Under the pieces are notes generated by a model. The model searched no databases. It saw nothing but the letters and a program-made list of their open reading frames with translations, and was not told where the DNA came from. A stretch of 19,930 bases of DNA from a virus (taxonomy: Duplodnaviria > Heunggongvirae > Uroviricota > Caudoviricetes): the IMG/VR virus record IMGVR_UViG_2529292724_000017; one strand, 5' to 3'. A program made the position numbers and the translations under genes. This document shows, piece by piece, positions 289 through 18,700 of the stretch. Each line of letters opens with the position of its first letter. The stretch's first letter is position 1.

Positions 289-770
289 GCCTGTTTTGCG
301 ACCTCATTCACTACGTCATTTTTTACCATCCGGCTGATAATCTGATTACGCAAATCGTCAATAATTGACTGCACTCTGTTTACTGCCATCGGTTTAAGCC
401 CGGCATCACGTGCCAGAATATTGGGGAGTTTTGCCAGTTCCTCGCTTACGATTTCCCCCCATATAGCCATCTCTTTTCGCACATCATCGGCGGGTATGAG
501 TTGCGCCGTTTCCTGTTCGAACCTGAGGCGCTCACGTTCGGACTGATACCAGGCCTTACGGTCATGTGGCTCCATTTCTTCCAGTGATGCCGGAACGGGA
601 AGATCAAGAAAACAGGTCAGAATGTCAGTCACCCGATAGAGTTTTAGCTTGTCATGCCCTCCGGCTGGCTGGATGTTTTTCAGCCTTGCCGCCGCAGTCT
701 GACGACATATTCCCGCTATCGCCGCCAGTTGATTAATGTTCAGCATCAGATTTTTCAGTTCTCGATCCAT
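285..770 (-). CDS. terminase small subunit, lambda Nu1-like (N-terminal winged-HTH DNA-binding domain)
   Basis: N-terminus MDRELKNLMLNINQLAAIAGICRQTAAARLKNIQP...YRVTDIL resembles lambda Nu1 as recalled (KKQLADIFGASIRTIQNWQEQGMP...YDSAAVIKWY); later ERERLRFEQE resembles Nu1 ERHRLTRAQAD. Start placed at the internal ATG (Met30 of the track ORF, whose own start at 857 is TTG). Confidence 0.6.
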   Translation of the reverse strand: MDRELKNLMLNINQLAAIAGICRQTAAARLKNIQPAGGHDKLKLYRVTDILTCFLDLPVPASLEEMEPHDRKAWYQSERERLRFEQETAQLIPADDVRKEMAIWGEIVSEELAKLPNILARDAGLKPMAVNRVQSIIDDLRNQIISRMVKNDVVNEVAKQA

Positions 771-922
771 ACCCGCTCCAGAATGTTTTAAACATGCATC
801 TTGCGAACAACTTTCAGAAGAGGTCAAAAAATGCGCTATATGTTGAGCATAAAACAAGCAAAATTAACATGCTAAAAATAAAAATACTTAAAATTCAATA
901 CAATGGAAAGATGATGATGACG

Positions 923-1022
923 AATGAAAATGCAAAAACTAGCCTTTTTCCGCGCCGCTCCCGCCCCGTGGCAGGTCACTACACCGGGAGGACCCGCAAA
1001 AAAAGGCGGCTATCGCCGCCCT
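923..1022 (-). promoter_or_regulatory. conserved ~100-bp element, copy 1, between capsid stop and terS; contains intrinsic-terminator-like hairpin (GGCGGC-tatc-GCCGCC plus T-run on minus strand, about 997..1021)
   Basis: Near-identical to 13777..13850 and related to 4568..4668; GC hairpin followed by T7 on the minus strand directly after the capsid stop. Confidence 0.5.
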
Positions 1023-1027
1023 TGTTG

Positions 1028-2629
1028 TCATGCTCCACTCGATTTCAGTAATCCGCGATAGTCGAGGGCCGCGACACCTGCATCTATGCGCACCTTCCAG
1101 GCGACGCCATCAACAGTAAATCCCTCCTGCTCCTCAAGATATGGCGTATCAATACCATCAAGATAAGCGACCTCTATCGTGTCCATCCCCTTCGCCGCTG
1201 CCACATACCACTCCTTGTTATTGGCTTTATCAAGACGCGGCTCGACGATAACCTCTGCCATATCTTTCACCACGTTAATGATGCCGGGGTTCTGATTGAT
1301 AGTGCCTCCACCATCAATCGGAAAGAGTGATGACGATGACAGAATGGCGCGATGTGCGGCAGACTCCAGCGCAGCAGGGACCAGAACAAAAGCGGGGGTA
1401 ATATTCAGGGAGTCGCCGTTGCCATCCTCCTGTAATCGCATCAGCTTACGGGCTTCGTTAAGCCCCTCCATGTCCATATCCTTCGCAATAAGATTTTTAT
1501 GATCGGCATGGAATAACGCTTTACCATCCGTAAATTTGCCGTTGCTGGTTAACAGAAGATAAACCAGATTACCTACTGTTCTGGCGGCCGCACGCCCCAT
1601 CGCCATGGGGATTGTAGTTAACTGGGTCAGGTCATCGTTGATAATGGCCTGACGGGTAACAGAAAAAATATTACCGTATGTGGCCAGCGCAATAGGTACA
1701 CCTTTATCGCTGGTGGTGATGTATTTATATTCCGCACCTTCCGGTACTTTATCCAGCTTTGAAAAACCATTCAGACCAACGCGCTTTGCTTCATGAAAGT
1801 TTGAAAGCGATCCGGTACACGTCCATTTCTGGAACGTTTCGCCGCTGTCCTGCCAGCCTTTCAGCACTGATTTTTCAGCACCACCAGCCAGAATATGAGA
1901 AAAATCGCTGCTGCTGTGTGTGAAAGCTGCATTAACGACCTGCGAGCGATTTAAAAAATTGCCAACACTGATACCACGATCAGTTAGTGATGCCTGGGCC
2001 ATTTCAAAAAGGCTCATCATCGCGTAAGGATTTCCCCGCTCTGGGCGTTCATACCCGAGACGAGAATAAAGCCCCTGACGAATTGCATCGCCTGTTATGT
2101 TCCCGTTACCGGCATAAATATGAGTCGGGATATTTTTATTGGATGGCGTGGACTCGCGCCCCAGCTCGTTCAACAACTTTTCACGGGCCATCTCCGGTGT
2201 ACATGATGCATCCTCCAGGCACGCCATTTTGATCCCGTCGTAACGACTGCCGAACAGGCTAAACACTTCACTTATTCCGTTGATGCGCTTCTGTTCATTA
2301 CCAGCAATATTTGCCGCTCCCTGTGGCGGTGTAATCATTCCTTTAATGGTTTCCGGCATATGTAAAAAATCTCCTGTGCGTTTCGATTCAATTCGCGCCA
2401 TTACTCTGACGGATGGCAACAATTCATCAGCAAAACCGTGCTTAAGGCATTCTTTCCCATCCATCCAGGTTTCATCCTCCAGCATGGCGGTAATTTCCTG
2501 TGCTGATTTGCCCGTTTTTCTGGCATAAGCAGGGATTAACACGGTTTCCACCTTATCCAGCAAATCAGCATAATCACGCATATCGCCAGCATTTCCGCCA
2601 GAGATCCCCCACGGTTTATGGATCATCAT
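1028..2629 (-). pseudogene. ClpP-like prohead protease / HK97-like major capsid fusion, 3' portion only (gene interrupted by nested element)
   Basis: Colinear with the intact 638-aa paralog (4671..6587) from MMIHKPWGISGG onward; homology stops exactly at the 12-bp repeat 2618..2629; the first six codons of the track ORF lie in insert DNA. Confidence 0.75.
2618..2629. repeat. 12-bp direct repeat ATGGATCATCAT, left copy (putative att core / junction)
   Basis: Identical 12-mer at 12935..12946; capsid homology ends and begins exactly at the two copies. Confidence 0.65.
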
Positions 2630-2696
2630 GCAATACATTGAAATCATCCTACTGATAAATAAGATTAAAAATCACAATACAGATACGTTTGAGCTT

Positions 2697-2721
2697 CATT
2701 GCAATACGCATTGCAATACAC
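2697..2721. repeat. tandem repeat cattGCAATACgcattGCAATACAc (arm-type-like sites) near left junction; GCAATACA also at 2630..2637
   Basis: Same motif tandemly repeated at 12784..12807 immediately upstream of the integrase start. Confidence 0.5.
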
Positions 2722-2965
2722 GGTTGCTGGGTGATTTCAAAAGATGAATGCTGCGAAGGATGGAAATTTGGGAACTAGGTGGTGAATAGCACAACAAAAA
2801 ATCAGAATTCTACTAGCTTAAAATGATGCAAAAAGCATTCGTGGCATCGCAAGCGCTGTACAATTCGTTCTATAATGAAGAAAATTTCTAACAGACTTTA
2901 TCATTCAAAGGTGGAGGAGATGACAGCAATGCAACATGCATCACGCTCATACTTGAATTGTAAAG

Positions 2966-3010
2966 CTATCGTTAGAATCACAGCCTTTTTGTTCCGCTGA
3001 TCTAACGATA
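2966..3010. promoter_or_regulatory. perfect 10-bp inverted repeat TATCGTTAGA / TCTAACGATA with ~25-bp spacer, about 60 bp upstream of the cargo operon
   Basis: Seen directly; AT-rich intergenic region preceding ORF 3070. Confidence 0.3.
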
Positions 3011-3069
3011 AAACTAGTGGTAAAAGGTATATTTTTTAATTTTTCAGACGCTGGCGCGGGGTAATTAAA

Positions 3070-3372
3070 ATGAAATTTGTAAATATACGGTCATCCGAGT
3101 TGCCTGAAATAGATACCTTTGTAAAAGAATGTATCAACCAAGGACAATGGACTCTTTTCAAGGCCGAGAAGGGTGCAGTTAATGATAATAAAGTTGCTTT
3201 TTTTCTAAAGGCTGGCAAAGATTTCTTTGCATTAAATAACAGAGGAAGTGTTATCTCTGTATTTCAATCATTAGATTATAATCTTGAAATGAATGAGGTA
3301 ATTCATTTTTCAGATATTCCTAAACCTGAATCGTTGAGCAATATTGCTAGCTTAGGATTTGCTAGAGTTTAA
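3070..3372 (+). CDS. hypothetical protein (100 aa), first gene of AT-rich two-gene cargo cassette
   Basis: ORF in AT-rich block; 18-nt gap to the next gene, which has a good SD; no family recognised. Confidence 0.55.
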   Translation: MKFVNIRSSELPEIDTFVKECINQGQWTLFKAEKGAVNDNKVAFFLKAGKDFFALNNRGSVISVFQSLDYNLEMNEVIHFSDIPKPESLSNIASLGFARV

Positions 3373-3390
3373 TATATAAGGATATGTACG

Positions 3391-4281
3391 ATGGGATTAA
3401 TATCTGGAAATACACATTGGGTATTATTTTTACCTTGTGAGCACCAACCAGAAGATCGCCATGTTCAAGATTTAGTTCATGGCGTCTTTTGCTTAGAATC
3501 CTCAGGTATACAGCCATCTAATATTAGCATATATATTGATGGCCAAAATAGAGCCAACTTTAATAAGTTAATTTCGATTGCAACCCAACATAATTATACT
3601 ATCAAGCCTACATCTGAATTTTTCACCGACTGCGATACAAATAGTTATGAAAATCTAGTTATGTTTGTGACCGGACACGGAAGTATGAATGGTTTGGACT
3701 CTGCGCCGATCATAACCCCATACCGTTTATTGGACAGGTTAAAAAACACTCCTGTTCTCAAGCAAGCAATCGTTTATCTTGGTCAATGTTTCGCTGGTGT
3801 TTTCAACTACTTACCTGCTGGGCAGCGTAAGAGAGGTGAAGATGCCGACCCCGATGTCATTCTTATCGGGGCTACGAGTCTTCATGAAAGTTTGAGTAAT
3901 CCAACAACGGAAAATATTAATGGTATAGATTTTCCTTGGGTTGCAAATCAATTTTTATATCATGTATTTAAGTGGATATCATCCCCGAATGATATCGATG
4001 GGGATGGAAAACATACAGTAATTGACTCTTATAAGTATGCTGGAATCTCATCAAACATGACCAATCGTAGAATGAAGATAGGTTCTTTTGTAGCTTCGGT
4101 AGACTTGCATGAGCAATGGAATACTGCAAAAAAAGATCATGAAGCTAACTTGGCTGATCCACAAAAACTACTCCGTTATAGAGCATTAGATCAGCAATAC
4201 TATGAAAAACTGAACATTAACTATATTCATCAAGAGTGCTGGATATTAAATTCTGTACCTGCACAATCTGTTGAATTCTAA
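3391..4281 (+). CDS. caspase-like (clan CD cysteine peptidase fold) protein, 296 aa
   Basis: Hydrophobic strand then His-Gly (LVMFVTGHGS, H96) and hydrophobic strand then Gln-Cys (AIVYLGQCFAG, C133) about 37 residues apart, the pattern of caspase/clan CD catalytic dyads; SD AAGGA 8 nt upstream; EF-hand-like loop DIDGDGKHTVID at residues 201..212. Confidence 0.6.
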   Translation: MGLISGNTHWVLFLPCEHQPEDRHVQDLVHGVFCLESSGIQPSNISIYIDGQNRANFNKLISIATQHNYTIKPTSEFFTDCDTNSYENLVMFVTGHGSMNGLDSAPIITPYRLLDRLKNTPVLKQAIVYLGQCFAGVFNYLPAGQRKRGEDADPDVILIGATSLHESLSNPTTENINGIDFPWVANQFLYHVFKWISSPNDIDGDGKHTVIDSYKYAGISSNMTNRRMKIGSFVASVDLHEQWNTAKKDHEANLADPQKLLRYRALDQQYYEKLNINYIHQECWILNSVPAQSVEF

Positions 4282-4285
4282 TCCT

Positions 4286-4456
4286 TTACTTTTTTGAATA
4301 GATTGCTGCAAGTGCCGTTTTGAGGTCGTAATTTCGGCACTTGCAACTGCAACCAGAAATAGGGCGAACGTTTGACAAACGTTTAGCTATAGTCTGCCGA
4401 TGAAATCCAGTCACTTCCGCCAACTCACTTAAATTTAGAACTATCTTTTTCATCAT
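4286..4456 (-). pseudogene. truncated Nu1-like terS remnant (56 aa, DNA-binding domain only)
   Basis: Not in the supplied ORF track (below its length cutoff); translated by hand from the minus strand as MMKKIVLNLSELAEVTGFHRQTIAKRLSNVRPISGCSCKCRNYDLKTALAAIYSKK, which matches the N-terminal HTH region of the 285..770 product and Nu1; about a third the length of the full gene. Confidence 0.5.
4307..4345. other. perfect 11-bp inverted repeat TGCAAGTGCCG / CGGCACTTGCA (17-nt spacer) between convergent genes
   Basis: Seen directly; lies just 3' of the cargo operon stop and inside the terS remnant; no flanking T-run. Confidence 0.35.
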
Positions 4457-4567
4457 AATTACCCTTCAGATGTCGAACAAATAACATACAATCCATCATC
4501 TTTTCCACTTTTATAAAGTTTTACCTAATAAAATTCAGTTAGTTAGCGAATGATGATGATGTCTATA

Positions 4568-4668
4568 AAATTCAAAAACTAGCCGTTTCCCGCGATGCCG
4601 CCGCCCCGTGGCAGGCATCCCCGCCGGGAGTACCTTTTAAAAAAGGGCAGCATCTGCCGCCCTCCTGT
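4568..4668 (-). promoter_or_regulatory. conserved element, copy 2 (diverged), between capsid stop and truncated terS; terminator-like hairpin GGCAG-cat-CTGCC plus T6 on the minus strand, about 4638..4664
   Basis: Shares the aaaaactagcc...ccgccccgtggcagg...ccgggag core with copies 1 and 3. Confidence 0.45.
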
Positions 4669-4670
4669 CG

Positions 4671-6587
4671 TCATGCCGCCCCGCTCGACTTCACCATGCC
4701 CCGATAATCCAGCGCCGCCACGCCAGCATCGATACGCACCTTCCATGCAATACCGTCCACAGTGAAGCCCTCCTGCTGTTCCAGATACGGCACGTCCATT
4801 CCATCCAGATATGCCACCTCGATAGTGTCGGTGCCTTGCGCTGCAGTGACGTACCACTCCTTGTTGTTGGCCTTGTCCAGTCGCGGCTCAACCACTACCT
4901 GCGCCATATCCTTCACGACGTTGATAATGCCTGGGTTCTGGTTCAGCATACCGTTCTGGTCTACCGGGAACAGCGAAGATGATGACAGCACAGCTCGATT
5001 GGCTGCGCCTTCCAGCGCGGCAGGTACAAGGATATAGGCTGGGATAACATTAATAGGATCGCCGTTCGCATCCTCCTGCAGACGCATAGCCTTACGGGCC
5101 TCATTGAGTCCGTCTGTATCCATCCCTTTAGCGATGAGGTTTTTATGGTCGGCGTGGAACAACGCTTTACCATCTGTGAATTTGCTGTTGGCGGTCAGTT
5201 GCAGGTAGACCAGATTGCCAACCGTTCGTGCGGCGGCACGCCCCATTGCCTGTGGAATGGTCGTGAGCTGGCTCAGGTCATCGTTGATAATGGCCTGGCG
5301 TGTAACAGAGAAGATGTTTCCATAGGTGGCCAGCGCGATCGGCACCCCGCTGTCGCTGGTAGTGACATATTTGTATTCAGCACCTTCCGGGACTTTATCC
5401 AGTTCTGAAAAACCATTCAGACCGACACGTTTAGCCTCATGGAAATTCGACAGAGAACCGGTCTTTGTCCACTGCTGGAAAGTTTCCCCGCTGTTCTGCC
5501 AGCCAGTCAGCACCGACTTTTCAGCACCACCAGCCAGGATATGAGAGAAATCACTGGTGCTGTGCGTAAATGCCAGGTTCACGATCTGCGAGCGATTCCC
5601 GAAACCACTGACGCTGATACCACGATCCACCAGCGAAGCCTGCGCCATTTCAAACAGACTCATCATGGCGTAAGGGTTTCCCCTTTCGGCGCGTTCGTGA
5701 CCCAGACGGGCAAAAAGCCCCTGGCGGATAGCATCGCCGGTAATGTTGCCGTTACCTGCGTAAATGTGCGCGTTACTGGTTTTATCCGATGGGGTCGAGG
5801 TCTTACCCAGTGCCGTCAGCAGCATGTCTTTTGCTTTTTCAGGCGTGCAATCCACATCCTCCAGACACTGCATCTTGAGAGAATCATGCTTGCCGCCGAA
5901 CATGGCAAACAGATCCTTAATCTCGTTGATGCGGTTCTGTTCCGGTACAGCGCTACTGGTGGAACCTTTCGGGCTGGTGATCATCCCTTTAATTTCTTTT
6001 GGCATATGCTCAAAATCCTCAATTCGTTTTGACTCAATACAGGCCATTGCCCTGACGGCGGGTAACAATTCGTCAGCAAAACCCTGCGCTACACATTCGC
6101 GGCCATCCATCCATGTTTCATCCTCCAGCATTTCCGCCAGTGATTCGGCTGATTTTCCCGTTTTGCGTGCATATGCCGGGATCAAGACACTTTCGACTTT
6201 ATCCAGAAGTTCGGCGTAGTCGCGCATGTCGTTGGCGTTCCCACCAGAGATTCCCCACGGTTTGTGAATCATCATGAGTGCGTTTTCGGGCATAACGATA
6301 CGGTCGCCAGCCATTGCAATAACTGACGCCATAGACGCGGCGAGACCGTCGATCTGCACTGTAATTTTTGCCGGGTGTTTATTCAGAAGGTTATAGATAG
6401 CGATGCCGTCAAAAACATCGCCACCGGGTGAATGAATGTGCAGGCTGATATGGGAGATATCGCCTAGGGCTTTCAGGTCTTCGGAGAACTGCTGCGCCGT
6501 AATACCCCAGCCGCCGATCTCTTCGTAGATGCTGATATTGGCGCTGGTGCCATCGCTGGCCGCTTTGATGGTGTACCAGCCTTTCAT
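4671..6587 (-). CDS. prohead protease (ClpP-like, serine motif GLAASMAS) fused to HK97-like major capsid protein, 638 aa, intact
   Basis: N-terminal ClpP-like block (IHSPGGDVFDG...GLAASMASVIAMAG); long C-terminal region typical of major capsid proteins; colinear with both fragments of the interrupted paralog. Confidence 0.7.
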   Translation of the reverse strand: MKGWYTIKAASDGTSANISIYEEIGGWGITAQQFSEDLKALGDISHISLHIHSPGGDVFDGIAIYNLLNKHPAKITVQIDGLAASMASVIAMAGDRIVMPENALMMIHKPWGISGGNANDMRDYAELLDKVESVLIPAYARKTGKSAESLAEMLEDETWMDGRECVAQGFADELLPAVRAMACIESKRIEDFEHMPKEIKGMITSPKGSTSSAVPEQNRINEIKDLFAMFGGKHDSLKMQCLEDVDCTPEKAKDMLLTALGKTSTPSDKTSNAHIYAGNGNITGDAIRQGLFARLGHERAERGNPYAMMSLFEMAQASLVDRGISVSGFGNRSQIVNLAFTHSTSDFSHILAGGAEKSVLTGWQNSGETFQQWTKTGSLSNFHEAKRVGLNGFSELDKVPEGAEYKYVTTSDSGVPIALATYGNIFSVTRQAIINDDLSQLTTIPQAMGRAAARTVGNLVYLQLTANSKFTDGKALFHADHKNLIAKGMDTDGLNEARKAMRLQEDANGDPINVIPAYILVPAALEGAANRAVLSSSSLFPVDQNGMLNQNPGIINVVKDMAQVVVEPRLDKANNKEWYVTAAQGTDTIEVAYLDGMDVPYLEQQEGFTVDGIAWKVRIDAGVAALDYRGMVKSSGAA

Positions 6588-6796
6588 TTTTCCCCTTCCG
6601 TTACAGCGAAGCCATTTTCATCAAGCCATGCGTTGACTGCGTGCCGGACTACCTGTGCCACTCCGGGCAATGGCTGGACAGGAAGATTTTTCAGATGATC
6701 GTTGCGGTATTGCTTAAGGCGTACAACGGTTTGCGCGTCCAGATGTACGGAGCCGCCTTTAGTCTCGCCAGTGTTTAAATCGTTAATGTCACTCAT
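6584..6796 (-). CDS. small conserved protein (70 aa) translationally coupled to the protease-capsid gene
   Basis: Homolog of 13258..13464 (MS.INDLNTG...GGSVHLDAQTV.RLKQYR...PLPGVAQ.VRHAVN.WL..NGFA); ATG at 6794..6796 with SD GAGGA; 4-nt overlap with the capsid start. Confidence 0.6.
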   Translation of the reverse strand: MSDINDLNTGETKGGSVHLDAQTVVRLKQYRNDHLKNLPVQPLPGVAQVVRHAVNAWLDENGFAVTEGEK

Positions 6797-6941
6797 GATG
6801 TCCTCTACTGTATAAGTAAACAGGTTATGATGATTGATCACCAAAAGTGGTAAGTGAACAATTTTTTATCTGAAAAATAGATTTATGATGAAAAAAAATT
6901 TTTGTATGGTCTTAGATTGGAATAAACAGAAAGGTTAAAAA
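6797..6941 (-). promoter_or_regulatory. putative promoter region of the small-protein/capsid operon, with conserved TTACCACTTTT box
   Basis: Boxes aaaagtggtaa and aaaaatagatt recur at 13500..13550 upstream of the paralogous operon. Confidence 0.3.
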
Positions 6942-7655
6942 ATGGATCTCACTCGTAATGACGAACTCCTTTTGAATGATGCAGCTAGACGCTCATTTCG
7001 GGATATGGCAGACCAGGATTATCTCTCAGCTCGTCTGTGTTATAAGCACAAATTGAATTTTCAATTTTTATGGCTTTCGCAACAAGCCGTAGAGAAATAT
7101 ATTAAAGCGATTTTACTTTATAATAGAGTTCCAGTATTAAAATTAAATCACAATTTAAACAAAGGGCTGGCAAAGATTAAAGAAATCCCATATCTTGAAT
7201 TAGACCTAGATGTAAAAAGTGAGCGATTCATAGATTATCTCAATGAGCAGGGCCCAAATAGATACTTCCAAAACACTATGTATACCGAAGGCTTTGAAAT
7301 TATAACCTTGGATAGAACCATCTGGGAATTAAGAAGATACTGCAAGCCACTAAACTACTCAATTACTAACCCAAAAGGTGAAGTGATAGAAATGTTAGAA
7401 CATGAATTGAGTAGCATAAAAAATTCGAAGTCGAGGCCTTATCATACGTTCAAACTATTTGGAGGTTACTTAGAAAAAAGATTAAAAGATAATAAATTCA
7501 ATCAGGGCGACATACTTACATGGAAAAATTTATTTTTTGGAAGAAATAAAAAAAATGCAATTAGAATTGGAAGATCAATGCATGTAACTCATCCAACTCA
7601 TTATATGTACCCAAATGCAACGGAAATGCTCAGTCGTTTCTTTAAAATAAAATAA
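6942..7655 (+). CDS. HEPN-domain protein (237 aa), single-gene AT-rich cargo
   Basis: N-terminal region matches the HEPN pattern as recalled: helix, then SQQAVEKYIKAILL, then NHNLNKGL, then ...NRYF (compare hQQAvEKalKAll ... tHdL ... RYP); SD AAAGG; opposite strand to backbone. Confidence 0.5.
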   Translation: MDLTRNDELLLNDAARRSFRDMADQDYLSARLCYKHKLNFQFLWLSQQAVEKYIKAILLYNRVPVLKLNHNLNKGLAKIKEIPYLELDLDVKSERFIDYLNEQGPNRYFQNTMYTEGFEIITLDRTIWELRRYCKPLNYSITNPKGEVIEMLEHELSSIKNSKSRPYHTFKLFGGYLEKRLKDNKFNQGDILTWKNLFFGRNKKNAIRIGRSMHVTHPTHYMYPNATEMLSRFFKIK

Positions 7656-7743
7656 TTACATTCCAATTTTATTTACCGCTGTTAAATAAGTAAGGTATAT
7701 CTTTATTTATCGACATTGATAATCATGAAAGAGTATATCTTTT

Positions 7744-7960
7744 TTGCCGCACCTAGCGCATTTCTCACCGCACTTTCATCCCGCGCACTTAGGTGCGCAA
7801 TCCAACATGCACCGTACAGCCATTAAAACCAGTAATGGGGCGGGTTTGCAGGTGATTAATGCCAAACCGCGCACTTTCTTCGTATATACATGGAAAAAGT
7901 GCGGCAAGTGTATGTTTTATGAGCATTTCGCGCATCACGCGCATTTCTTGCCGCACTTTT
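7744..7960. repeat. iteron-type origin region: repeats of (T)TGCCGCAC / CGCACTTT in both orientations plus palindrome GCGCACTTAGGTGCGC
   Basis: Five or more copies within ~220 bp immediately downstream of the replication gene ending at 7965. Confidence 0.5.
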
Positions 7961-7964
7961 CAGG

Positions 7965-9374
7965 TTAAATTATCGTGATATCTCCTGAATCATCGATAAA
8001 GATAATATTCTCCCTAACGAGTTTATCAAGCCAGCGTTTAAAACCTTTGCGGCCGTTCTCTCCAAACAGAGTGGTAATATCATCACGTATAACAGAGACA
8101 TTACACGGTTCACCTTTGGCTTTTCGGCTCCGGATTGACTGCCAGAGTGCAGCGTGGTTCCCAGTCAGGTGCTTGATATCAGCAAGTTCCGGATCAGGTT
8201 CTCGTGCCTCTCGTGGCAGGTCCTGCACCACCAGCGACGAAATAAGCTCACCATCACGATCTGTGAACAATTCGATCGGACGCAGATCGAATGCGGCCTG
8301 TTTCGGCTCCTCCGCATCTTTCATCTTCGTACAGGTCAGGATTATCGCCCCACCATCCCCCTCGCGCCGGACATTGAACTCTGCATCGAGCGCAGCCCTG
8401 AAAGCACTGGAACCACGTGCGCCTTTGGTATCGTCTTTTCCTGAATGATGCACCACCAGCAACGTGGCGCCAGTCTCACGCTTGATGACGTCGCAGCCTT
8501 CAATAAACGCCCCCATGTCACGAGCATCGTTTTCATCGTTACCACCAAAGCACCGCGCTAGAGTATCTATGACAATCAGGCGAACCGGCTGCCCCGTTTT
8601 GGACTTAACGTCACGCGCAGCTTTGATCATCTCCTGCATTTCCTCACGGCGAACCGGGAAAACCGGACGGTTTACCAGATACAGATTATTTAGTTTCACA
8701 CCATGTTTTTTCTCCCACGCCTTTATTCGCCGCGGAACGCCAATACCACCTTCACCTACTACGTACATCACAGCGCCGGCTGATACCGACTTCCCCGCCC
8801 ACTTCATCCCGGCTGCAACGTGACAAGCCCAGGACACCGCCAGAAAACTTTTATACGAACCGCTCGGGCCGTAGATACTGCTCAGGCTGTTAGCGGGAAG
8901 ATAACTTTTTAACGTGTAATCCTGCTCCTGATCGTACCCATCAGAGCCCACGCTTAAAGGAAGGCTGTGCCGCAGTGACTCCTCTCGCACAGAGACTTCA
9001 ACCTGTTCACGCAGACGAGAAAGATATTCCCTCCAGTCCTCAGGCTCATGGTCGGGGATTCCTTTATACAATTTGGCATCCTGCACGCCAGCCAGCGCCA
9101 GCTTTTCAGCAATGTTATTAATCTGGATAGGCTTTATATTCCCTGCCAGGTAAATCCGCACGGCACGACGGCCATCATCCACAATGCGCAGGTTATCCAG
9201 CTCTGCCAGTTGTTTTGGCCCAAGGTAAACAGGAGGAGTGGTATCTTCGGCAATCTGTTTACCAAGCCCCTCTTCCCAACCCTTCGCATGGGCGTATGCT
9301 TCTGACCCGGCAAAAATAACTGCCTCCGTGAATTTTTCTTTTGGCAGGTGTTTCAGATTCGGTGCGTTTTTCAT
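7965..9374 (-). CDS. replication initiator: primase-associated N-terminal domain fused to RepA/DnaB-like RecA-fold ATPase (469 aa)
   Basis: Walker A GPSGSYKS and Walker B-like LIVIDTL; first ~125 aa shared with the 14246..16063 product. Confidence 0.65.
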   Translation of the reverse strand: MKNAPNLKHLPKEKFTEAVIFAGSEAYAHAKGWEEGLGKQIAEDTTPPVYLGPKQLAELDNLRIVDDGRRAVRIYLAGNIKPIQINNIAEKLALAGVQDAKLYKGIPDHEPEDWREYLSRLREQVEVSVREESLRHSLPLSVGSDGYDQEQDYTLKSYLPANSLSSIYGPSGSYKSFLAVSWACHVAAGMKWAGKSVSAGAVMYVVGEGGIGVPRRIKAWEKKHGVKLNNLYLVNRPVFPVRREEMQEMIKAARDVKSKTGQPVRLIVIDTLARCFGGNDENDARDMGAFIEGCDVIKRETGATLLVVHHSGKDDTKGARGSSAFRAALDAEFNVRREGDGGAIILTCTKMKDAEEPKQAAFDLRPIELFTDRDGELISSLVVQDLPREAREPDPELADIKHLTGNHAALWQSIRSRKAKGEPCNVSVIRDDITTLFGENGRKGFKRWLDKLVRENIIFIDDSGDITII

Positions 9375-9694
9375 TTCAGCCCCTTATCCCATCCGTCAGA
9401 TCCAACACTCAGCGGCAGAGAAGAGCGCAGAGCAGCGATTTTTTTACGCACGTTTTCTTTTACGGTCTCCTGCCACTCCCTGCTTTCCTCAGGGAGATAA
9501 ATAAATTCTTTTCGGAACCGGTACTCAGAAAAAATACACTCATGTGAATACCCATCCCGGACATACGTAATACGGCTATCCGTTATGCATGTGACAGTAA
9601 TTTTTTCTCCGCGAGAATCTTTCCAGCGACTGTTAAGCTCGATTTTTGGTTGAGCGATGCCCTCAAGCTGAACCTGATTGAATTTTTTAATCAT
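9371..9694 (-). CDS. conserved hypothetical protein (107 aa) translationally coupled to the replication gene
   Basis: Homolog of 16060..16359 (shared block TV..I...R.Y..RDGYS); 4-nt overlap with downstream start. Confidence 0.55.
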   Translation of the reverse strand: MIKKFNQVQLEGIAQPKIELNSRWKDSRGEKITVTCITDSRITYVRDGYSHECIFSEYRFRKEFIYLPEESREWQETVKENVRKKIAALRSSLPLSVGSDGWDKGLK

Positions 9695-9698
9695 GAAT

Positions 9699-9878
9699 TT
9701 ATTCCTTGTCGGTAGCCGTTAAACCGTATGCTTCAGCAGCCTGACGAACTGCCTGGATAAAACCTTCCGGTGTGGCCACGATTTCGTCCGGACGAAGGCG
9801 GCGCTCTGTAACCTGACCGTTTTTAACCGTCACCAGTACGCGGATCTCGTAATCAGCAGGTAAGGCGGAGTTATCCAT
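9699..9878 (-). CDS. hypothetical small protein (59 aa)
   Basis: Internal ATG of track ORF 9699..10004, overlapping the stop of the upstream Ash-like gene by 8 nt; clean composition ([16 protein letters not shown]...). Confidence 0.4.
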
Positions 9879-10158
9879 GGCGCACCTCCATTGGCACAGC
9901 TTCATTGCTGTAAGGATCGCTACCCAAGATGCTCCATAGGGTGCGATGTTCAGGATCCATAAACGACACTGAGAGCGGGCTTTCTGTTCGGATTTTGGCG
10001 GCAAAGGTCAAGTCCCAGCCGCAGAACTTTGCACGGGCAGTATCTTCAGTGTCTGCAATGGTGCGCAGAACTATCGGGAGACAAGAGTGACCTCGCGGCG
10101 TGCCAAGGAATAGCCATGTAAATTTTGGGCGAGTTTGGGTATGCTGTTGATCAGCCAT
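9871..10158 (-). CDS. Ash/Icd-like small protein typical of P4-type elements (95 aa)
   Basis: [12 protein letters not shown]...[17 protein letters not shown] resembles the KFTW(R/L)F...E.EAR pattern of Ash/Icd-like proteins as recalled; ATG at 10156..10158 with SD GAGGT; first gene of the replication operon. Confidence 0.45.
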
Positions 10159-10190
10159 AACTGTTACCTCAACTAACGGTTTGTGGTTAG

Positions 10191-10235
10191 ACGTCCCGTG
10201 AGTGGTTCCAAGCACTTCCGGGACGTTGCTTTTTT
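10191..10235 (+). terminator. conserved hairpin ACGTCCCG-(20 nt)-CGGGACGT followed by TGCTTTTTT, terminator-like on the plus strand
   Basis: Paralogous hairpin at 16919..16952 has ACGCCCCG/CGGGGCGT, a compensatory base-pair change; both sit ~40 nt upstream of an Ash-like start. Confidence 0.45.
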
Positions 10236-10251
10236 CACGTCAAGCGTGATA

Positions 10252-10296
10252 ACGTACGTACGTAATAGCAACATCCTATGAGGTTACGTACGTACA
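10252..10296. promoter_or_regulatory. two palindromic operator-like sites (ACGTACGTACGT and TACGTACGTACA) flanking the promoter of the RHH gene
   Basis: Two near-identical palindromes ~33 bp apart; the second overlaps the RHH start codon; region lies between divergent genes. Confidence 0.45.
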
Positions 10297-10487
10297 TGTC
10301 AACAATAAAACGAGATAAAACACCCAAAGGAGAGGGCTTGTCTCCGACATTCCAAATCCGAATAAGTCCTGAATTGCGCCAGCAGATGAATGAAGCTGCT
10401 GAGCGTGAGGGAGTAAGTCTTGGTAATTGGCTTAAAGGTCTGGCTAGAAATGAACTTATTAAGCAAGGAATTGAACCTAAAGGTTAG
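10296..10487 (+). CDS. ribbon-helix-helix (Arc/CopG/HicB-type) DNA-binding protein, candidate repressor of the inner element
   Basis: FQIRISPELRQQMNEAAEREGVSLGNWLKGLARNEL fits a beta-strand plus two helices RHH; divergent from the replication operon; start placed at the second ATG (track ORF begins 10278). Confidence 0.55.
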   Translation: MSTIKRDKTPKGEGLSPTFQIRISPELRQQMNEAAEREGVSLGNWLKGLARNELIKQGIEPKG

Positions 10488-10540
10488 TTTTCACAAGCAC
10501 TCTTTGATTTTTTCAGTAAAAATTAAATTAAGGAAATTCT

Positions 10541-11251
10541 ATGGATGATTTATATACACCATCTGAATATTTTATGTTCGTAGAGAAATTTGATCATTAC
10601 TTCCCACGAAAAAGCCCTTTTAACTCATTATTATTCGAGTTCAATTATAGATTAGAAGATATAGTTGTTTTTCATCGCTTTGTTATCAACACCTATTCAA
10701 AAAATAAAAAAGCAATTGATGTACAATATAATAAATTTAATTTTCTTGATGATAAACAAAAAAATTCCCTTTCTGATGACGAGTATGAAGCGTATCAACT
10801 CAGGTTTGCAAGGCATATGGAATACATTAACCATCAAACTGATTTGAATGAAAAAGCGTCTTACATTGCTAACGATAGTGTCGTTATAAACTTATGGGCC
10901 ATGAATGAACAATATATGACTAGAGGATTGGCCAACCTAATATCTCAAAAAGAAAATAAAAATTTAAATGAAGTTAAAACGCCTTACAAATGGGATACAA
11001 TCAAAAGTAAATTCCTGTCATATGGAATCAACTTTGAGACATTGCCATCTTATGATGACATTAATGAATGTAGAGTACTGAATAATAAAATAAAACATCT
11101 GAACATAGTAGATTCTGGTTTAGAAGTTTTCCCTCCCTTCAAAGGTAAGCTTAACGAATCACTTACTGGCATGGCCTTTCCTCTTCAAAAATATATCATA
11201 GGCTCTCATCACTTTATAGGAATGCTATTAGAAGAGTGCTCATTAAAATAA
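10541..11251 (+). CDS. hypothetical protein (236 aa), AT-rich cargo downstream of the RHH regulator
   Basis: SD AAGGAA; 53-nt gap after the RHH gene with no obvious terminator; no family recognised. Confidence 0.55.
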   Translation: MDDLYTPSEYFMFVEKFDHYFPRKSPFNSLLFEFNYRLEDIVVFHRFVINTYSKNKKAIDVQYNKFNFLDDKQKNSLSDDEYEAYQLRFARHMEYINHQTDLNEKASYIANDSVVINLWAMNEQYMTRGLANLISQKENKNLNEVKTPYKWDTIKSKFLSYGINFETLPSYDDINECRVLNNKIKHLNIVDSGLEVFPPFKGKLNESLTGMAFPLQKYIIGSHHFIGMLLEECSLK

Positions 11252-11297
11252 ACGCATGGCAACGTATAATTTATCGCTTAATACGTTGCCATATCTC

Positions 11298-11543
11298 TCA
11301 TTTATTTTTATCGAACCAATCTCCTTTAATCCAAGCTTGCATCTCTGAGAGCCGGTAAGCAACTGCTGACGGCCCAATTTTGATTCGCTTAGGAAATTTT
11401 CCTTCCTGTTCCATGCGCCAGCGCGTTGAGTTAGACAACGTAGTCATAGCCCGGCATTCAGGTTCGCGAATCATTCTGTCAAGGTCAGGCATGTACTGGA
11501 GATCTTCTTTTTTCACAACGGATAACATAGCCATATCAGGCAC
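11298..11543 (-). CDS. alpA: AlpA-family small DNA-binding protein (transcriptional regulator/excisionase-like)
   Basis: IREPECRAMTTLSNSTRWRMEQEGKFPKRIKIGPSAVAYRLSEMQAWI matches the AlpA HTH pattern; SD AAGGAG; start overlaps the integrase stop. Confidence 0.65.
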   Translation of the reverse strand: MPDMAMLSVVKKEDLQYMPDLDRMIREPECRAMTTLSNSTRWRMEQEGKFPKRIKIGPSAVAYRLSEMQAWIKGDWFDKNK

Positions 11544-12771
11544 TCCTTTTCTTAATTACTTTTACTGTATTTTCTTCACCCACCAGCCCATCAAGGTAGT
11601 CAACCCATCGGTCCAGTGCTTCTTGCTTTTGAGGGATATACTTGCTGCGGTTATAGACTCCGGCCACGCCCTTTATGGTATGCCCCAGCAGCTGCTCTAC
11701 GACCATAAAATCAACGCCCATATCGTTAAGGCTTGTCGAGAACGTTCGTCTCAAATCATGTAATGACCAGCGTTTTTCATGTTTCAGAGAGATAAAGTTT
11801 GTGCATCCCATCGTACTGACGGTTGAATCAGATTTCAGTTCGCCAAATATGTAGCCTCTCCTTTTAGTCTCTTCGTGCAGGTTTACGATCCACTGGCGCA
11901 TTTTTTGAGGAACGGGGCGAATAATTTCTTCGCCGTTTTTACTGTGCTCTTTAGGTACTGTCCAAATCCACTTATCGAAATCCCACTCATCCCATGTAGA
12001 TAAACGCGCCTCACTCAGCCTGCAGCCAAACACGAGACACAAAATCGCCATCCTTTTTTTGTAATTCATTACACGGGTTTTGCCTTTACCATGAAAGTAC
12101 ACTCCCCACAGATCGGCGACGTAGCTTTCCTCAAGTAGCCGCTCTCTCTTGTTCTGATACTTACCGATATCACCAGGGCTCAAATCATCAAGCACATTGC
12201 ACCGCACATACTGGCGCACCCGGCAGTATTTGAAGATCTGCTTTAACTCAATCAGCATTGCAGCAGACTGAACCGGCGCGATTTTCTTTATGCGGTCGAA
12301 GCACTTGATCCAGTCTGACAGACCGCATTTCTCGACAGGAAACCCGCCGATGTAGGGAAAAATGTATCTCTCATAACGGCGATAGAGCCGTAAAGTCTCT
12401 TTGCGCTTTTCCCTGGCATAGTTATCAAACCAGTAATCGATAGCGTTCTTCACAGTTACTGGAGTGAACAGGTTCTCTTTGGTGAGTTTGTTCTCTATTC
12501 GTGGGTCGAGTCCCTGAGATAGCCATGCCCGGCACTCGTCCCTTTTCTCTCTGGCCTGTTTAAGGGTCATATCTGGATACTTGCCTAACGTCATCCAGAC
12601 GGGGGCGCTTTGTCGGCCGGAATGTCTGAAGAAATACACAAAGCTCACAGTGCCACTAACGCTCACTCTGACAGACAGTCCACGACCATCTGCCACCATC
12701 TTTTGACGCGGCTGGGGTTTACCATGTAAGGCCTTTAACGCCTTGTCGCTTAACTTGTTCTCGCCCGCCAT
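11536..12771 (-). CDS. int: tyrosine site-specific integrase, P4-type (411 aa)
   Basis: Length and motifs of phage integrases (C-terminal LHDLRRTF, LLGH, then Y in VYNRSKY); paralog at 18701..19930. Confidence 0.8.
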   Translation of the reverse strand: MAGENKLSDKALKALHGKPQPRQKMVADGRGLSVRVSVSGTVSFVYFFRHSGRQSAPVWMTLGKYPDMTLKQAREKRDECRAWLSQGLDPRIENKLTKENLFTPVTVKNAIDYWFDNYAREKRKETLRLYRRYERYIFPYIGGFPVEKCGLSDWIKCFDRIKKIAPVQSAAMLIELKQIFKYCRVRQYVRCNVLDDLSPGDIGKYQNKRERLLEESYVADLWGVYFHGKGKTRVMNYKKRMAILCLVFGCRLSEARLSTWDEWDFDKWIWTVPKEHSKNGEEIIRPVPQKMRQWIVNLHEETKRRGYIFGELKSDSTVSTMGCTNFISLKHEKRWSLHDLRRTFSTSLNDMGVDFMVVEQLLGHTIKGVAGVYNRSKYIPQKQEALDRWVDYLDGLVGEENTVKVIKKRSA

Positions 12772-12783
12772 AAAACCTCATTC

Positions 12784-12807
12784 TGCAATACACATTGCAA
12801 TACACAC
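12784..12807. repeat. tandem repeat TGCAATACAcatTGCAATACAcac immediately upstream of the integrase start
   Basis: Same motif as 2697..2721 at the other end of the inner element. Confidence 0.5.
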
Positions 12808-12934
12808 TTAACTGCAACGCCGAAAAACAGTAGAAAAGCAATGCAAACAACACCTCTTCTTTCTTCATAATTAACAATAAGTTAATGAATGAATACGGTT
12901 CTTCATGCGTACCCATGAGGTAGTGTGAAGGATA

Positions 12935-12946
12935 ATGGATCATCAT
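12935..12946. repeat. 12-bp direct repeat ATGGATCATCAT, right copy (putative att core / junction)
   Basis: Identical to 2618..2629. Confidence 0.65.
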
Positions 12947-13258
12947 CATGGCGTTCTCCGGCATCACTACACGATCGCCAGCCATTGCGACCACCGAAGC
13001 CATTGAAGCCGCAACACCATCGATATAAACCGTAATGTCTGCCGGATGATTCCGTAGCAGGTTATAGATGGCGATGCCTTCAAACACATCACCACCTGGT
13101 GAATGGATCCTCAGATTGATATGTGAAACATCGCCAAGGGCTTTCAGGTCTTCCGCGAACTGCTTTGCAGTAACACCGAAGCCGCCAATCTCCTCATAGA
13201 TAGATATATCCGCCGCTCCACGAACATCCGCCGCCTTAATGGTGTACCAGCGATTCAT
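12935..13258 (-). pseudogene. ClpP-like prohead protease / capsid gene, 5' portion only (N-terminal ~108 codons)
   Basis: MNRWYTIKAADVRGAADISIYEEIGGFGV...GVAASMASVVAMAGDRVVMPENAMMMIH is colinear with the N-terminus of the intact paralog; the track ORF 12719..13258 reads on into insert DNA after the repeat. Confidence 0.7.
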
Positions 13259-13464
13259 TATTCCCCCACCGATGCAAAACCATTCTGATTAAGCCAGGTG
13301 TTTACGGCATGTCTGACAATCTGCGCCACACCTGGTAATGGTTTGTCAGGATGATGATTTATATGGTCGATCCTGTACTGCTTAAGGCGCATAACGGTCT
13401 GCGCATCCAGATGAACGGAACCACCCCTGATATCGCCCGTGTTCAGGTCATTAATACAACTCAC
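13258..13464 (-). CDS. small conserved protein (68 aa) preceding the interrupted capsid gene
   Basis: Homolog of 6584..6796; probable GTG start with SD AGGAAG. Confidence 0.55.
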   Translation of the reverse strand: MSCINDLNTGDIRGGSVHLDAQTVMRLKQYRIDHINHHPDKPLPGVAQIVRHAVNTWLNQNGFASVGE

Positions 13465-13562
13465 AGTAACTTCCTCTTACTGACTAAACTGTGCACATTA
13501 TTGATCGATAAAAGTGGTAAATAAATATATTTCTATCATAAAAATAGATTAATCAGATTCAG

Positions 13563-13589
13563 ACACAAAAAAGCCGGAGAAAATCCGGC
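13563..13589 (-). terminator. intrinsic-terminator-like hairpin GCCGGA-gaaaa-TCCGGC followed by T6 on the minus strand
   Basis: Seen directly. Confidence 0.4.
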
Positions 13590-13776
13590 ATAAATACCCC
13601 GCCATCTGAACACGTTTTGACACTGGCAACTCCACCTGGCAGGTGAAAAACAGATTTATTTATATATTTCAATTAATTGCAAGCTGGTCTAATGACAGGG
13701 AGAAAAAAATATTGTACAGGTGAAAACAGAAATAATTTTTAATTATCAATAAATTATCAAACATGCTGCCGCCGCC

Positions 13777-13873
13777 ATGAAAATGCAAAAACCAGCCTTT
13801 TTCCGCGACGCTCCCGCCCCGTGGCAGGTCACTACACCGGGAGGACCCATAAAAAAGCCGGATTGCTCCGGCT
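13777..13873 (-). promoter_or_regulatory. conserved element, copy 3 (near-identical to copy 1 over ~75 bp) with terminator-like hairpin GCCGGAgcaaTCCGGC plus T6 on the minus strand (13850..13873)
   Basis: Direct-repeat copy lying upstream of the small-protein/capsid module rather than downstream of the capsid gene. Confidence 0.45.
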
Positions 13874-14005
13874 TCTGTTACTCGTTGCTTAAAACGGTAT
13901 GTTATCCCCGTACGGATCATCATTCCCCGCCTGTTGTTTTGGTGTGCTTCGCTGTCATAGGCTTTATCTCACAGCAGTAAATTAAAATTTTTGCGTTTTA
14001 ACCCT

Positions 14006-14232
14006 TCACCTGTTCACCTTTTGATATTTTCTCTTTTAATTCATAATGTTAAGGGGTGAACAGTTTCACAAAAACTATTCACCAACTGTTCACCACTGTT
14101 CACCCTTGAAGCTCAATAAACAATCAAAAAGGTGAACAGTGAATAGTTTGGTGAACAGTTCATAAATAACTGCTCACCCTATAATATACTGATATAAAAG
14201 ATATTTATGACAGGGTGAACAGTGGTGAACAG
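14006..14232. repeat. iteron-type replication origin: eight or more copies of GGTGAACAG / CTGTTCACC in both orientations with AT-rich spacers
   Basis: Copies near 14009, 14055, 14086, 14096, 14131, 14151, 14214 and 14224; immediately downstream of the primase-helicase gene. Confidence 0.65.
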
Positions 14233-14245
14233 TTATTCCATAAGT

Positions 14246-16063
14246 TTAATTTTTGCTATCGTCATTAGTGACCGATACACATGATGGCATCCAGTCTTCT
14301 GATTCCTCCGTCAGTGTCACGTTTGAACGCAAACCGTGCTTCGTTTTCCGTTTCATATACTCCCTGCCATATTCCGCCATTGCCCCCGGCATATCTTTAC
14401 CGAAGCGCGTCAGTGTTACAGGTTTACCAAACCCATGTGCCCTCATATAAGCCAGATAGGCATGATAGAGATACCTGCGTGGGCTGAATGGCACAATTTC
14501 AGCATTACCCACTAACAGGCCATCACACATTACCGACGCCATGAGATAGCCGCAGAAGTCCACCAGCGAATCCCCCTCTCGCTTTATCGCCAGTGCTTCT
14601 TCAGATTTCTGCTGCTCATATAACAGGCGTCTGGCTTCGTCCTGGTCAGCAAACCGTGTAAGCAGATGGCGAATCACTACCGCCAGCTCACCTTCTATTT
14701 TTTCCGCCAGCATTGGATCACGTTCGTTCTCCGGTACAACTTCCGAAAAATTGAATATCACCCGACGACGTGAGATCCCCCCGCTGCGGTCACTGAATGA
14801 CATGGCGTTATTGTTAACCGCCAGCACTACTGCCGGAATACGCGTTGAGTAGGGGGCTTTGTGTTTCGGGTCAATTGCCACCTTGTCACCGCCTGTAATA
14901 GCCTTAATCCCTGCCCCATCACCAGCGTAGCGGGTCATATCCGGCATGATAATCAGCGAAAAGCCAACCACTAACGCGCGTTCCCTTGCATCTTCCAGCG
15001 CCTTCATGCTTGCCGATACTGTGTTGGCCTTACCCGCCAGCATGGTGCAAATCTCCGCCATCACGCTTTTACCACTTCCCCCTGGACCTGTTACCTCAAT
15101 GAATAACTGCCAGTCGTACCGGTTCGCCAGCACCATGAATAATGCAGCCAGTACGCGATCCGCCTTGCGGTCATTCTCAGCCACCGAACGGCGTAACCAC
15201 TTCCAGAAATTCGGCGCATGTGTTGCCAGCGTTTCCCCCTCTGCTGGTGGGCTGAAAGGTAATTCACTGGCAATTAACAACCAGTCGTTTTTGTTATGCT
15301 CCCGAAAATTACCTGTTCTGGTATCAAATACCCCGTTACTGAATCCAATCAGGTTACGGGCTGTATTCCCCATTACAGGCAAACTTAACTTCATGGTATC
15401 GACCGCCGATTTAATGGCGTTCTGCGAATAGCTGATCTCCGCATCAATGAAAATCTGTGCCATAGCTCGCTGTAATTCTTTATCCTGTACTGGCTCCCAT
15501 ACAACGCCGTTGTAATGGTGAACAGTGTCAGAGTCAGCATGAATCGCCAGTTCACCGCCATAATGTGCCAGGAGAACTTCGCCGCGTTGACTTGCTCCCA
15601 TCTGGTTAAGCGCCAGTGATGAAGCGTTATCGTCTTTTACCCGCTCTTTTTTCTTTACAGGCAGTTCAACTACCTTTTTCTTTTCCGCCTGCTCTGCCCG
15701 TTCACGTTCCAGATATTCGCGCCAGTTCTCCCGTTTCTGGCTGTGCATTCCTTCAGGATAATAATCAGCATCCCTGACACCTGCCGCTGCCAGTTTCTGC
15801 CCGATGGTATTAACAAGTCCCGGACGCAATAACCCCGCCTGGTAGAGACGCACGCGATAGCGTCCGTCTGGTACGATTTGCAGGTTGTCCAGTTCGGCAA
15901 GTTGTTGCTCTCCAAGCCAGACAGGTGGCACGTTATCGCCAGCCAGTCGCCCGTCCTGTTCCTGCCACTGCTTCGCATGTGCCCACGCATCACTACCCGC
16001 AAAAATGATGACTTCCGTCATTTTGTCACGCGGTTGGTGTTTTAAATTTGGCGCTTTTTTCAT
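14246..16063 (-). CDS. primase-helicase replication protein (P4 alpha / D5-like, SF3 helicase Walker A VTGPGGSGKS), about 605 aa
   Basis: N-terminal domain shared with the 7965..9374 product; central primase-like region; Walker A and DEAD-like motifs; start placed at MKKAPNLKH (second Met), overlapping the upstream stop as ATGA. Confidence 0.7.
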   Translation of the reverse strand: MKKAPNLKHQPRDKMTEVIIFAGSDAWAHAKQWQEQDGRLAGDNVPPVWLGEQQLAELDNLQIVPDGRYRVRLYQAGLLRPGLVNTIGQKLAAAGVRDADYYPEGMHSQKRENWREYLERERAEQAEKKKVVELPVKKKERVKDDNASSLALNQMGASQRGEVLLAHYGGELAIHADSDTVHHYNGVVWEPVQDKELQRAMAQIFIDAEISYSQNAIKSAVDTMKLSLPVMGNTARNLIGFSNGVFDTRTGNFREHNKNDWLLIASELPFSPPAEGETLATHAPNFWKWLRRSVAENDRKADRVLAALFMVLANRYDWQLFIEVTGPGGSGKSVMAEICTMLAGKANTVSASMKALEDARERALVVGFSLIIMPDMTRYAGDGAGIKAITGGDKVAIDPKHKAPYSTRIPAVVLAVNNNAMSFSDRSGGISRRRVIFNFSEVVPENERDPMLAEKIEGELAVVIRHLLTRFADQDEARRLLYEQQKSEEALAIKREGDSLVDFCGYLMASVMCDGLLVGNAEIVPFSPRRYLYHAYLAYMRAHGFGKPVTLTRFGKDMPGAMAEYGREYMKRKTKHGLRSNVTLTEESEDWMPSCVSVTNDDSKN

Positions 16064-18092: not shown

Positions 18093-18144
18093 GGTTAGAT
18101 CTCTGTATTAGTGGATGGGTGGCGGCTGTGTGCCGCCAGCCTGA

Positions 18145-18333: not shown

Positions 18334-18375
18334 AATTCCCCCTTTGATATTTCTTAAAGAGTTATTTGGTGTCCT

Positions 18376-18678: not shown

Positions 18679-18700
18679 TTCTAAAAAATCGCAAAAAAAA

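Follow-up and report, generated by a model that had tools for sequence, protein, structure and literature searches.

Two nested satellite elements at one locus

The window, by which we mean the whole 19,930-nt stretch of DNA analysed here, is 99.6-99.7% identical to E. coli chromosomes at a locus between tRNA-Ile/mug and nfeF. RefSeq annotates two satellite gene sets within it. Each set comprises an integrase, an AlpA-type regulator, an Icd-like protein, a DUF4222 protein, a replication protein, a fusion of a ClpP protease with a major capsid protein and a DUF1441 small-terminase-like protein. Both elements carry int, alpA and early genes that run in one direction, with the late/capsid genes downstream (RefSeq and Pfam), which is the organization expected of a PICI.

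One copy of the protease/capsid gene is cut into an N-terminal and a C-terminal fragment that lie on either side of the second gene set. In an uninterrupted relative from E. coli D5 (L007), which is 98.4% identical to the outer region, positions 1-2629 and 12935-13948 of the window abut with a 12-bp overlap, and the 12-mer ATGGATCATCAT is found at both junctions (Table 1). The inner element (~2630-12934) is therefore a site-specific insertion in the capsid gene of the outer element, and the nesting proposed in the initial annotation of this DNA is real, with the 12-bp sequence duplicated at the split gene.

The same integrase occurs in another genome (L172), where it sits at the same codons (…TMMMIH; 3820-3840) of a ClpP-like head-protease gene in a lambdoid prophage. 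The inner integrase targets the conserved ...MMIH codons of ClpP-like head proteases both in another PICI and in a lambdoid prophage, and we infer that these codons represent the catalytic-His motif. The left end of the inner element supplies an in-frame ATG (MYCMMIH...), so a 539-aa ORF (1028-2647) stays open that encodes the rest of the protease and the entire capsid domain of the outer gene. Were the inner element to excise at the 12-bp core, the outer capsid gene would become whole again.

PMC10111431 describes helper-embedded PICIs at the site C:CLP_protease:110 and a nested composite of 20.6 kb, in which a helper-embedded PICI resides in another PICI inserted at tRNA-Ile. In all likelihood the window is one of these published composites. 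Its integration site matches C:CLP_protease:110, and the core duplicated within a late gene fits the helper-embedded PICIs, whose integrase clade targets late genes. The composites resemble it in location (tRNA-Ile next to mug), target (the ClpP-like protease codons ...MMIH), size (~20 kb) and co-orientation of the inner element with the interrupted gene, and no architectural difference from them was found. As far as we could read, the paper does not analyse the iterons, and the word 'iteron' was not met in it.

Several strains carry deletion derivatives of the same composite (L008 from E. coli HCM-25C-3, and the matches H5-H9). The integrases and part or all of the replication genes are gone and both capsid genes are kept, which points to decay of the composite at its locus. 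At its right end the window is variable: from 16950 to 19930 it diverges from the composites of strains 90-9280 (accession CP024240) and ETEC-2264, which are otherwise 99.7% identical and whose match stops at 16950. This segment carries the outer integrase and a 396-aa protein with a weak anti-repressor (Bro-N-like) match, and it fits the PICI 'Bro zone'.

A conserved element of ~80 bp is found at 924-1003, 13777-13856 and 4567-4643. Identity is 95% between the first two copies and 78% for the third. It flanks the outer capsid gene on both sides and occurs once after the inner capsid gene. Because it matches lambdoid phages (for example mEp460) near the right end of the linear record, at ~120-190 bp from that end, it is probably helper cos-region sequence carried by the satellites. 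The inner element also encodes plus-strand cargo, oriented against the main transcription, at 6942-7655, 3070-4281 and 10541-11251. This set includes a HEPN-domain protein adjoining the predicted inner origin, two hypothetical proteins of 100 and 296 aa and another of 236 aa beside a HicB-like antitoxin, which may serve in defence or as accessory functions. At gathering thresholds, no Rfam family was matched anywhere in the window.

Table 1. Features of the inner and outer elements, by position in the window.
Feature	Position	Strand	Description	Basis
Left att core, inner element	2618-2629		12-mer ATGGATCATCAT	Junction comparison
Arm-type repeats, left end of inner element	~2699-2720		TTGCAATAC, just inside the att core
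AT-rich stretch	7656-7743		20-27% GC, just past the distal inner iterons	Composition
Predicted inner-element replication origin	7744-7960		~10 iterons, core (C/G)CGCA(C/T)(C/T)T	Counts versus chance, layout in homologues
Inner iterons	7747, 7756, 7768, 7783, 7869, 7930 (degenerate), 7939, 7951	plus
Inner iterons	7791-7798, 7897-7904	minus
Repeat TTGCCGCAC	7744-7752; 7899-7907 (reverse strand); within 7947-7956
Repeat CGCACTTT	7769-7776, 7871-7878, 7952-7959
Tenth inner copy	7930-7937		Degenerate, GCGCATCA
Dyad	7783-7798		GCGCAC-TTAG-GTGCGC
Inverted iteron pair	7869-7876 / 7897-7904		Brackets TATATACA at 7883-7890
Iteron sequences named in the inner family			AAAGTGCGG, AAAGTGGGG, AAAGTGAGG
Inner initiator-helicase	7965-9374	minus	469 aa	Pfam, structure match, model, covariation
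Inner initiator, N-terminal domain	residues 1-105		Toprim-like domain
Inner initiator, helicase	residues ~146-360		RepA/DnaB-type RecA-fold helicase (AAA_25)
Inner initiator, C-terminal domain	residues 405-469		Predicted winged-helix-like origin-binding domain; specificity residue G444
DUF4222 gene	9371-9694	minus	Directly upstream of the inner initiator
Inner integrase gene	11536-12771	minus
Arm-type repeats, right end of inner element	~12785-12805		Adjoin the inner integrase gene
Right att core, inner element	12935-12946		12-mer ATGGATCATCAT; encodes the MMIH motif of the interrupted ClpP-like protease
Predicted outer-element replication origin	14000-14240		Iterons GGTGAACAG	Counts versus chance, conservation, EcCICFT073 layout
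Exact GGTGAACAG copies (n = 8)	14010-, 14055+, 14086-, 14096-, 14131+, 14150+, 14214+, 14224+	as marked
One-mismatch GGTGAACAG copies (n = 2)	14075-, 14170-	as marked
Degenerate outer copies	~14003, ~14138
AT-rich patches in the outer origin	14019-14054, 14179-14213
Repeat variants named in the outer family			TGTTCACC, TGTTCATT
Outer initiator-helicase	14246-16078 (GTG start) or 14246-16063 (ATG start)	minus	605 aa from the ATG
DUF4222 gene	16060-16359	minus	Directly upstream of the outer initiator

The outer repeat cluster and its initiator

The initial annotation counted eight or more iterons downstream of the D5-like gene of the outer element, and eight exact and two near copies are indeed found at 14010-14232. 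The cluster stops 14 bp past the stop codon of this D5/P4-alpha-like gene and thus lies 3' of its putative initiator. Allowing up to one mismatch, GGTGAACAG has 21 matches in the whole window, against 3.5 expected, a number reached by no shuffle. The densest 230-bp span holds eight copies of TGTTCACC, compared with at most two in shuffled sequence. The sole exact copy of GGTGAACAG outside 14000-14240 is at 15517, inside the initiator gene. Between the iteron groups are patches of 22-25% GC, so the iterons flank AT-rich DNA.

The outer initiator-helicase is composed of an N-terminal Toprim-like domain, a D5_N domain, an SF3 helicase (DUF5906) and a P4-alpha-type origin-binding domain (aa 502-598), in that order; a Pox_D5 domain is also matched. 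Residues 150-600 (alpha ~320-770) are 51% identical to P4 alpha, and aa 502-598 match the solved P4 alpha origin-binding domain (1KA8, E = 1.8e-24). In the P4 reference record, the nonamer GGTGAACAG carries the annotation 'ori type 1 repeat' at both ori and crr. Presumably alpha binds the type 1 repeats via its C-terminal domain, as the GenBank annotation, the PDB match and the P4 literature lead us to assume. The outer initiator has no P4-type primase domain, and its residues 1-132 instead match the N-terminus of the inner RepA. The earlier label 'primase-helicase' therefore needs correction; the helicase is of the SF3 type and homologous to that of P4 alpha.

To survey the outer family, the 330 bp following the stop codon were compared across 83 loci, which gave 60 distinct downstream sequences. 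In 59 of these 60, six to nine copies of TGTTCACC are present; the window has eight, versus nine in most relatives.

The inner repeat cluster and its initiator

The inner cluster begins 6 bp past the stop codon of the RepA-type gene and is likewise 3' of its putative initiator. The repeats and palindrome that had been reported downstream of this gene are confirmed at 7744-7960. The motif SCGCAYYT has 18 matches in the 19.9-kb window, against 6.5 expected, and half of them (9 of 18) fall within 7747-7958. No 217-bp span held more than three matches in 300 shuffles of the window, compared with the nine observed. Neither the inner nor the outer motif is found in the cluster of the other.

The inner iterons form two groups, with AT-rich DNA outside the cluster (7656-7743) and a small TATATACA centre. 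The spacer between the groups (7800-7866) has 45-52% GC, whereas the corresponding spacer is AT-rich in the E. coli islands L004 and L005. Since the inner spacer is not AT-rich, the melting site of the inner origin is uncertain, and the stretch at 7656-7743 is a candidate for its unwinding region.

The same origin plan recurs in all 80 of the 80 IMG/VR homologue loci (relatives 58-100% identical) and in L004 and L005. It spans ~230 bp after the stop codon. Direct repeats come first, ~4-12 bp from the stop; next are one inverted copy (~55 bp) and one direct copy (~84 bp) on either side of a TATA(T)ACA centre, and the distal part holds 2-4 further direct copies at ~140-180 bp. In both the inner and the outer family, repeats are present in all close and moderately distant homologues, so the proposal passes the check set by the initial annotation, in which their absence from close homologues would have counted against it.

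A 74-codon ORF with a TTG start (7744-7968) covers the entire inner cluster, and long stop-free stretches occur in many of the homologous regions, so the repeats might be the by-product of a small gene. We rejected this ORF as a gene and give the by-product reading hardly any credence. The ORF is unannotated in RefSeq, and the open stretches vary in strand, frame and position among homologues, where their translations are low-complexity echoes of the repeats. Conservation falls on the repeat core and the spacing, not on the reading frame.

The helicase core of the inner initiator matches AAA_25 (1.7e-41) and RSF1010 RepA (1G8Y, E = 5e-5). Residues 405-469 were modelled as two helices followed by a beta-hairpin with moderate confidence (pLDDT 68-90), and the model has a single long helix at the place where a helix-turn-helix would be expected. 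When the full-length RepA model was compared with the PDB by Foldseek, only weak whole-chain matches (Twinkle, E = 3e-4, TM 0.21) and matches of the core to RadA/Rad51 came up, and the C-terminal domain was not identified. The designation 'RepA-like' needs correction in that the protein is a helicase with a fused, predicted origin-binding domain and not an iteron binder of the plasmid RepA/RepC type.

Iteron sequence covaries with the initiator C-terminus

In both protein families, the sequence of the iterons covaries with residues of the C-terminal domain. The RepA-family repeat core reads AAAGTG-X-G on the rep-sense strand, where X is C in the class of the window and G or A elsewhere. One alignment column, residue 444, predicts X without exception in 40 distinct combinations of C-terminal domain and class, although these are related sequences that represent perhaps 3-4 independent switches and not 40 independent events. 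Gly, Ser or Ala at this position goes with C, His with G and Asn with A, and the mutual information of 1.54 bits equals the class entropy. The closest cross-class pairs differ at two of the last 110 residues, and only position 444 changes every time. The switch at this position is seen in at least three sequence backgrounds.

Residue 444 directly follows the invariant K443, and the model would place it at the start of the predicted recognition helix. Histidine usually contacts guanine and asparagine adenine, which makes a direct base contact by residue 444 plausible. Covariation is the strongest evidence that the C-terminal domain of the inner helicase itself reads the repeats, which it strongly suggests.

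The exception among the 60 distinct outer-family regions (L147, IMGVR_UViG_2784132061_000002) has an initiator 95% identical to that of the window and a collinear origin. Within 330 bp after its primase gene, every iteron reads CTGTTCAT(T/C), not CTGTTCACC, and its substitutions are clustered in the origin-binding domain (R577K, K578R, K580T, H581A, L583V). This looks like a natural specificity switch of the P4-type domain, in which the patch 577-583 would retune recognition from ...TTCACC to ...TTCAT(T/C). That origin specificity is set largely by residue 444 in the RepA type and by patch 577-583 in the P4 type is a proposal in which belief and doubt are evenly balanced. We found no prior description of the RepA-type origin or of the one-residue rule. 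They are the sole parts of this analysis with some novelty, and the rule is possibly new.

The repeats could alternatively be operator, regulatory or packaging sites and not origins: they might bind an AlpA or Bro-type regulator, act in termination or as a roadblock where the rep gene ends, or function as cos/pac sites. Both clusters are intergenic, between convergent or tandem genes, a setting in which regulatory sites are also found; the inner one includes the hairpin-capable dyad at 7783-7798, and PICIs are known to carry helper packaging sequences (PMC6092414). We nevertheless regard this as very unlikely. Covariation links the repeats to the C-terminal domain of the neighbouring helicase and to no regulator. 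In the outer cluster the repeat is the type 1 nonamer of the P4 ori, and the C-terminus of the outer initiator matches the solved origin-binding domain of P4 alpha. Scans of both regions for terminators and promoters yielded nothing above shuffles, with no terminator-like site found in either, and the separate ~80-bp element with its match to lambdoid genome ends is a better candidate for a packaging site.

Proposed function of the two clusters

We conclude that each cluster is very probably the replication origin of a Gram-negative PICI-type satellite, located immediately 3' of the gene for its self-loading initiator-helicase. Upon induction, the initiator would be made and its C-terminal winged-helix-type domain would bind the short repeats, whose copies face both ways around short AT-rich segments. 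Hexamers would then assemble on the repeats and melt the DNA, and the helicase module would drive replication without DnaA. No DnaA box was found in either origin, which fits a DnaA-independent start. For both pairs, the proposed binding, melting and firing follow the precedent of P4 alpha and of SaPI Rep (PMC9371898).

In the outer pair, an SF3 (D5/P4-alpha-like) helicase with a P4-type origin-binding domain would read the P4-type GGTGAACAG repeats. In the inner pair, an SF4 (RepA/DnaB-like) helicase with a different C-terminal domain would read (C/G)CGCACTT repeats. Comparison among homologues makes a strong case that each protein reads its own set of repeats. The pairing of two iteron sets with two helicase-type proteins put forward in the initial annotation is thus supported by adjacency, by homology to the P4 domain and by covariation.

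Similarity to known replication systems

The layout and the nested pair represent known biology that has already been described; the initial observation was correct and its interpretation largely so. In Gram-negative PICIs, the origin has been placed immediately 3' of the replication gene, and a pri-ori segment of EcCICFT073 maintained a plasmid only when gene and origin were both intact (Fillol-Salom et al. 2018, PMC6092414). Both elements here share with EcCICFT073 the origin 3' of the replication gene, the order int, alpA, small genes, DUF4222, pri/rep, ori and late genes, and short iterons in both orientations. In the outer element, as in EcCICFT073, these iterons surround AT-rich DNA. Over its full length, the outer initiator has 49% identity to the EcCICFT073 Pri-Rep. 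The EcCICFT073 downstream repeats (TGTCTACC / GGTAGACA) are collinear with the outer origin: two direct repeats, an AT-rich stretch, one inverted repeat, three direct repeats, a spacer and inverted copies. The iteron cores differ, being TGTCTACC in EcCICFT073 and TGTTCACC in the outer element. The inner element departs further from EcCICFT073, in that it has a RepA/SF4 helicase module and no AT-rich spacer between the iteron sets. Because the experiments on the EcCICFT073 origin concern the outer type, we found no close relative of the RepA-type origin that has been tested experimentally.

Besides the type 1 nonamer, the outer element and P4 have in common the 10-bp tandem spacing (GGTGAACAGTGGTGAACAG is present in both, in P4 within ori), homologous helicase and origin-binding domains, and a cluster directly after the gene, as in P4 crr. 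In contrast, the N-terminal primase region of P4 (~320 aa) is replaced in the outer initiator by the ~130-aa Toprim-like domain. P4 has two cis elements 4.5 kb apart (ori and crr), whereas the outer element has one cluster, and a motif scan of the window found no crr-like second cluster of P4 repeats. No homologue of Cnr was found; the 106-aa gene upstream of the outer DUF4222 gene has no similarity to P4 Cnr. The rest of the outer element is of the PICI type, unlike P4. The outer pair is a better match to a PICI replication module than to a full P4 replicon.

SaPI Rep/PriRep proteins are self-loading helicases with a C-terminal winged helix and 6-12 short iterons directly after their own gene; the iterons point in opposite directions on either side, and there is specificity between cognate Rep and ori (PMC9371898). 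The SaPI Reps have no detectable sequence homology to the proteins described here, and they are of the AAA+ SF3 type, whereas the inner helicase is of the RecA-fold SF4 type. The core of the inner protein belongs to the same family of RepA-type hexameric helicases as RepA of RSF1010 (IncQ). In RSF1010, a separate RepC reads the iterons and RepB' primes. The inner helicase, by contrast, carries a predicted DNA-binding domain of its own and a Toprim-like domain in the same polypeptide, and no separate RepC-like iteron binder or RepB-like primase was found among the annotated and Pfam-scanned genes of the inner element.

Independence of the two replicons

The initial annotation further proposed that the two elements replicate independently and without cross-interference. 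The two pairs have unrelated binding domains and unrelated repeats, so each initiator is expected to act on its cognate origin alone, and cross-initiation between the two pairs seems unlikely. The proposal is nevertheless supported only in part. The N-terminal ~126 residues of the two initiators (the Toprim-like domain) are 58% identical, and each initiator gene is preceded by a DUF4222 gene, the two copies of which are 39% identical. Given this shared equipment, the two initiators may compete for a common partner. Furthermore, the inner element lies within the outer one and would be replicated passively along with it each time the outer origin fires ahead of inner excision. According to PMC10111431, such passive copying has been measured for a related composite with a helper-embedded PICI, in which excision and replication of the whole came before excision of the satellite.

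Another possibility is that only one of the two origins still works and that the locus is a decaying composite in which the presence of two replicons is historical. The outer capsid/protease gene is disrupted, other strains have deletion derivatives without rep or int (L008, H5-H9), and the authors of PMC10111431 consider the integration into a PICI possibly accidental. However, the ORFs of both initiators are intact over their full length, and each iteron set is complete. The outer region is nearly identical to that of the uninterrupted L007, and the capsid gene would be regained by excision at the core. We therefore consider the loss of one origin improbable.

Implications for satellite biology

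Satellites that reside in one cell, and here at one locus, have to keep from firing or titrating the origins of their neighbours. In E. coli, the N-terminal domain shared by the two initiators is found attached to helicase modules of the RepA, DUF5906, DUF927 or VapE kind. The Toprim-like domain is a common front end onto which units of helicase plus binding domain have been swapped, and the two non-homologous pairs of binding domain and iteron on a shared N-terminal domain illustrate this module swapping among E. coli PICIs.

The practical value of assigning the origins of a published composite is modest. The rule that links residue 444 to an iteron base is testable, and it could be used for the design of orthogonal satellite-based replicons or for the prediction of PICI incompatibility. 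If it is true, enterobacterial satellites make mutually orthogonal replicons by changes of one or two residues, each matched by a concerted change of all ~10 iterons. This would explain how several PICIs, even nested ones, coexist in one cell.
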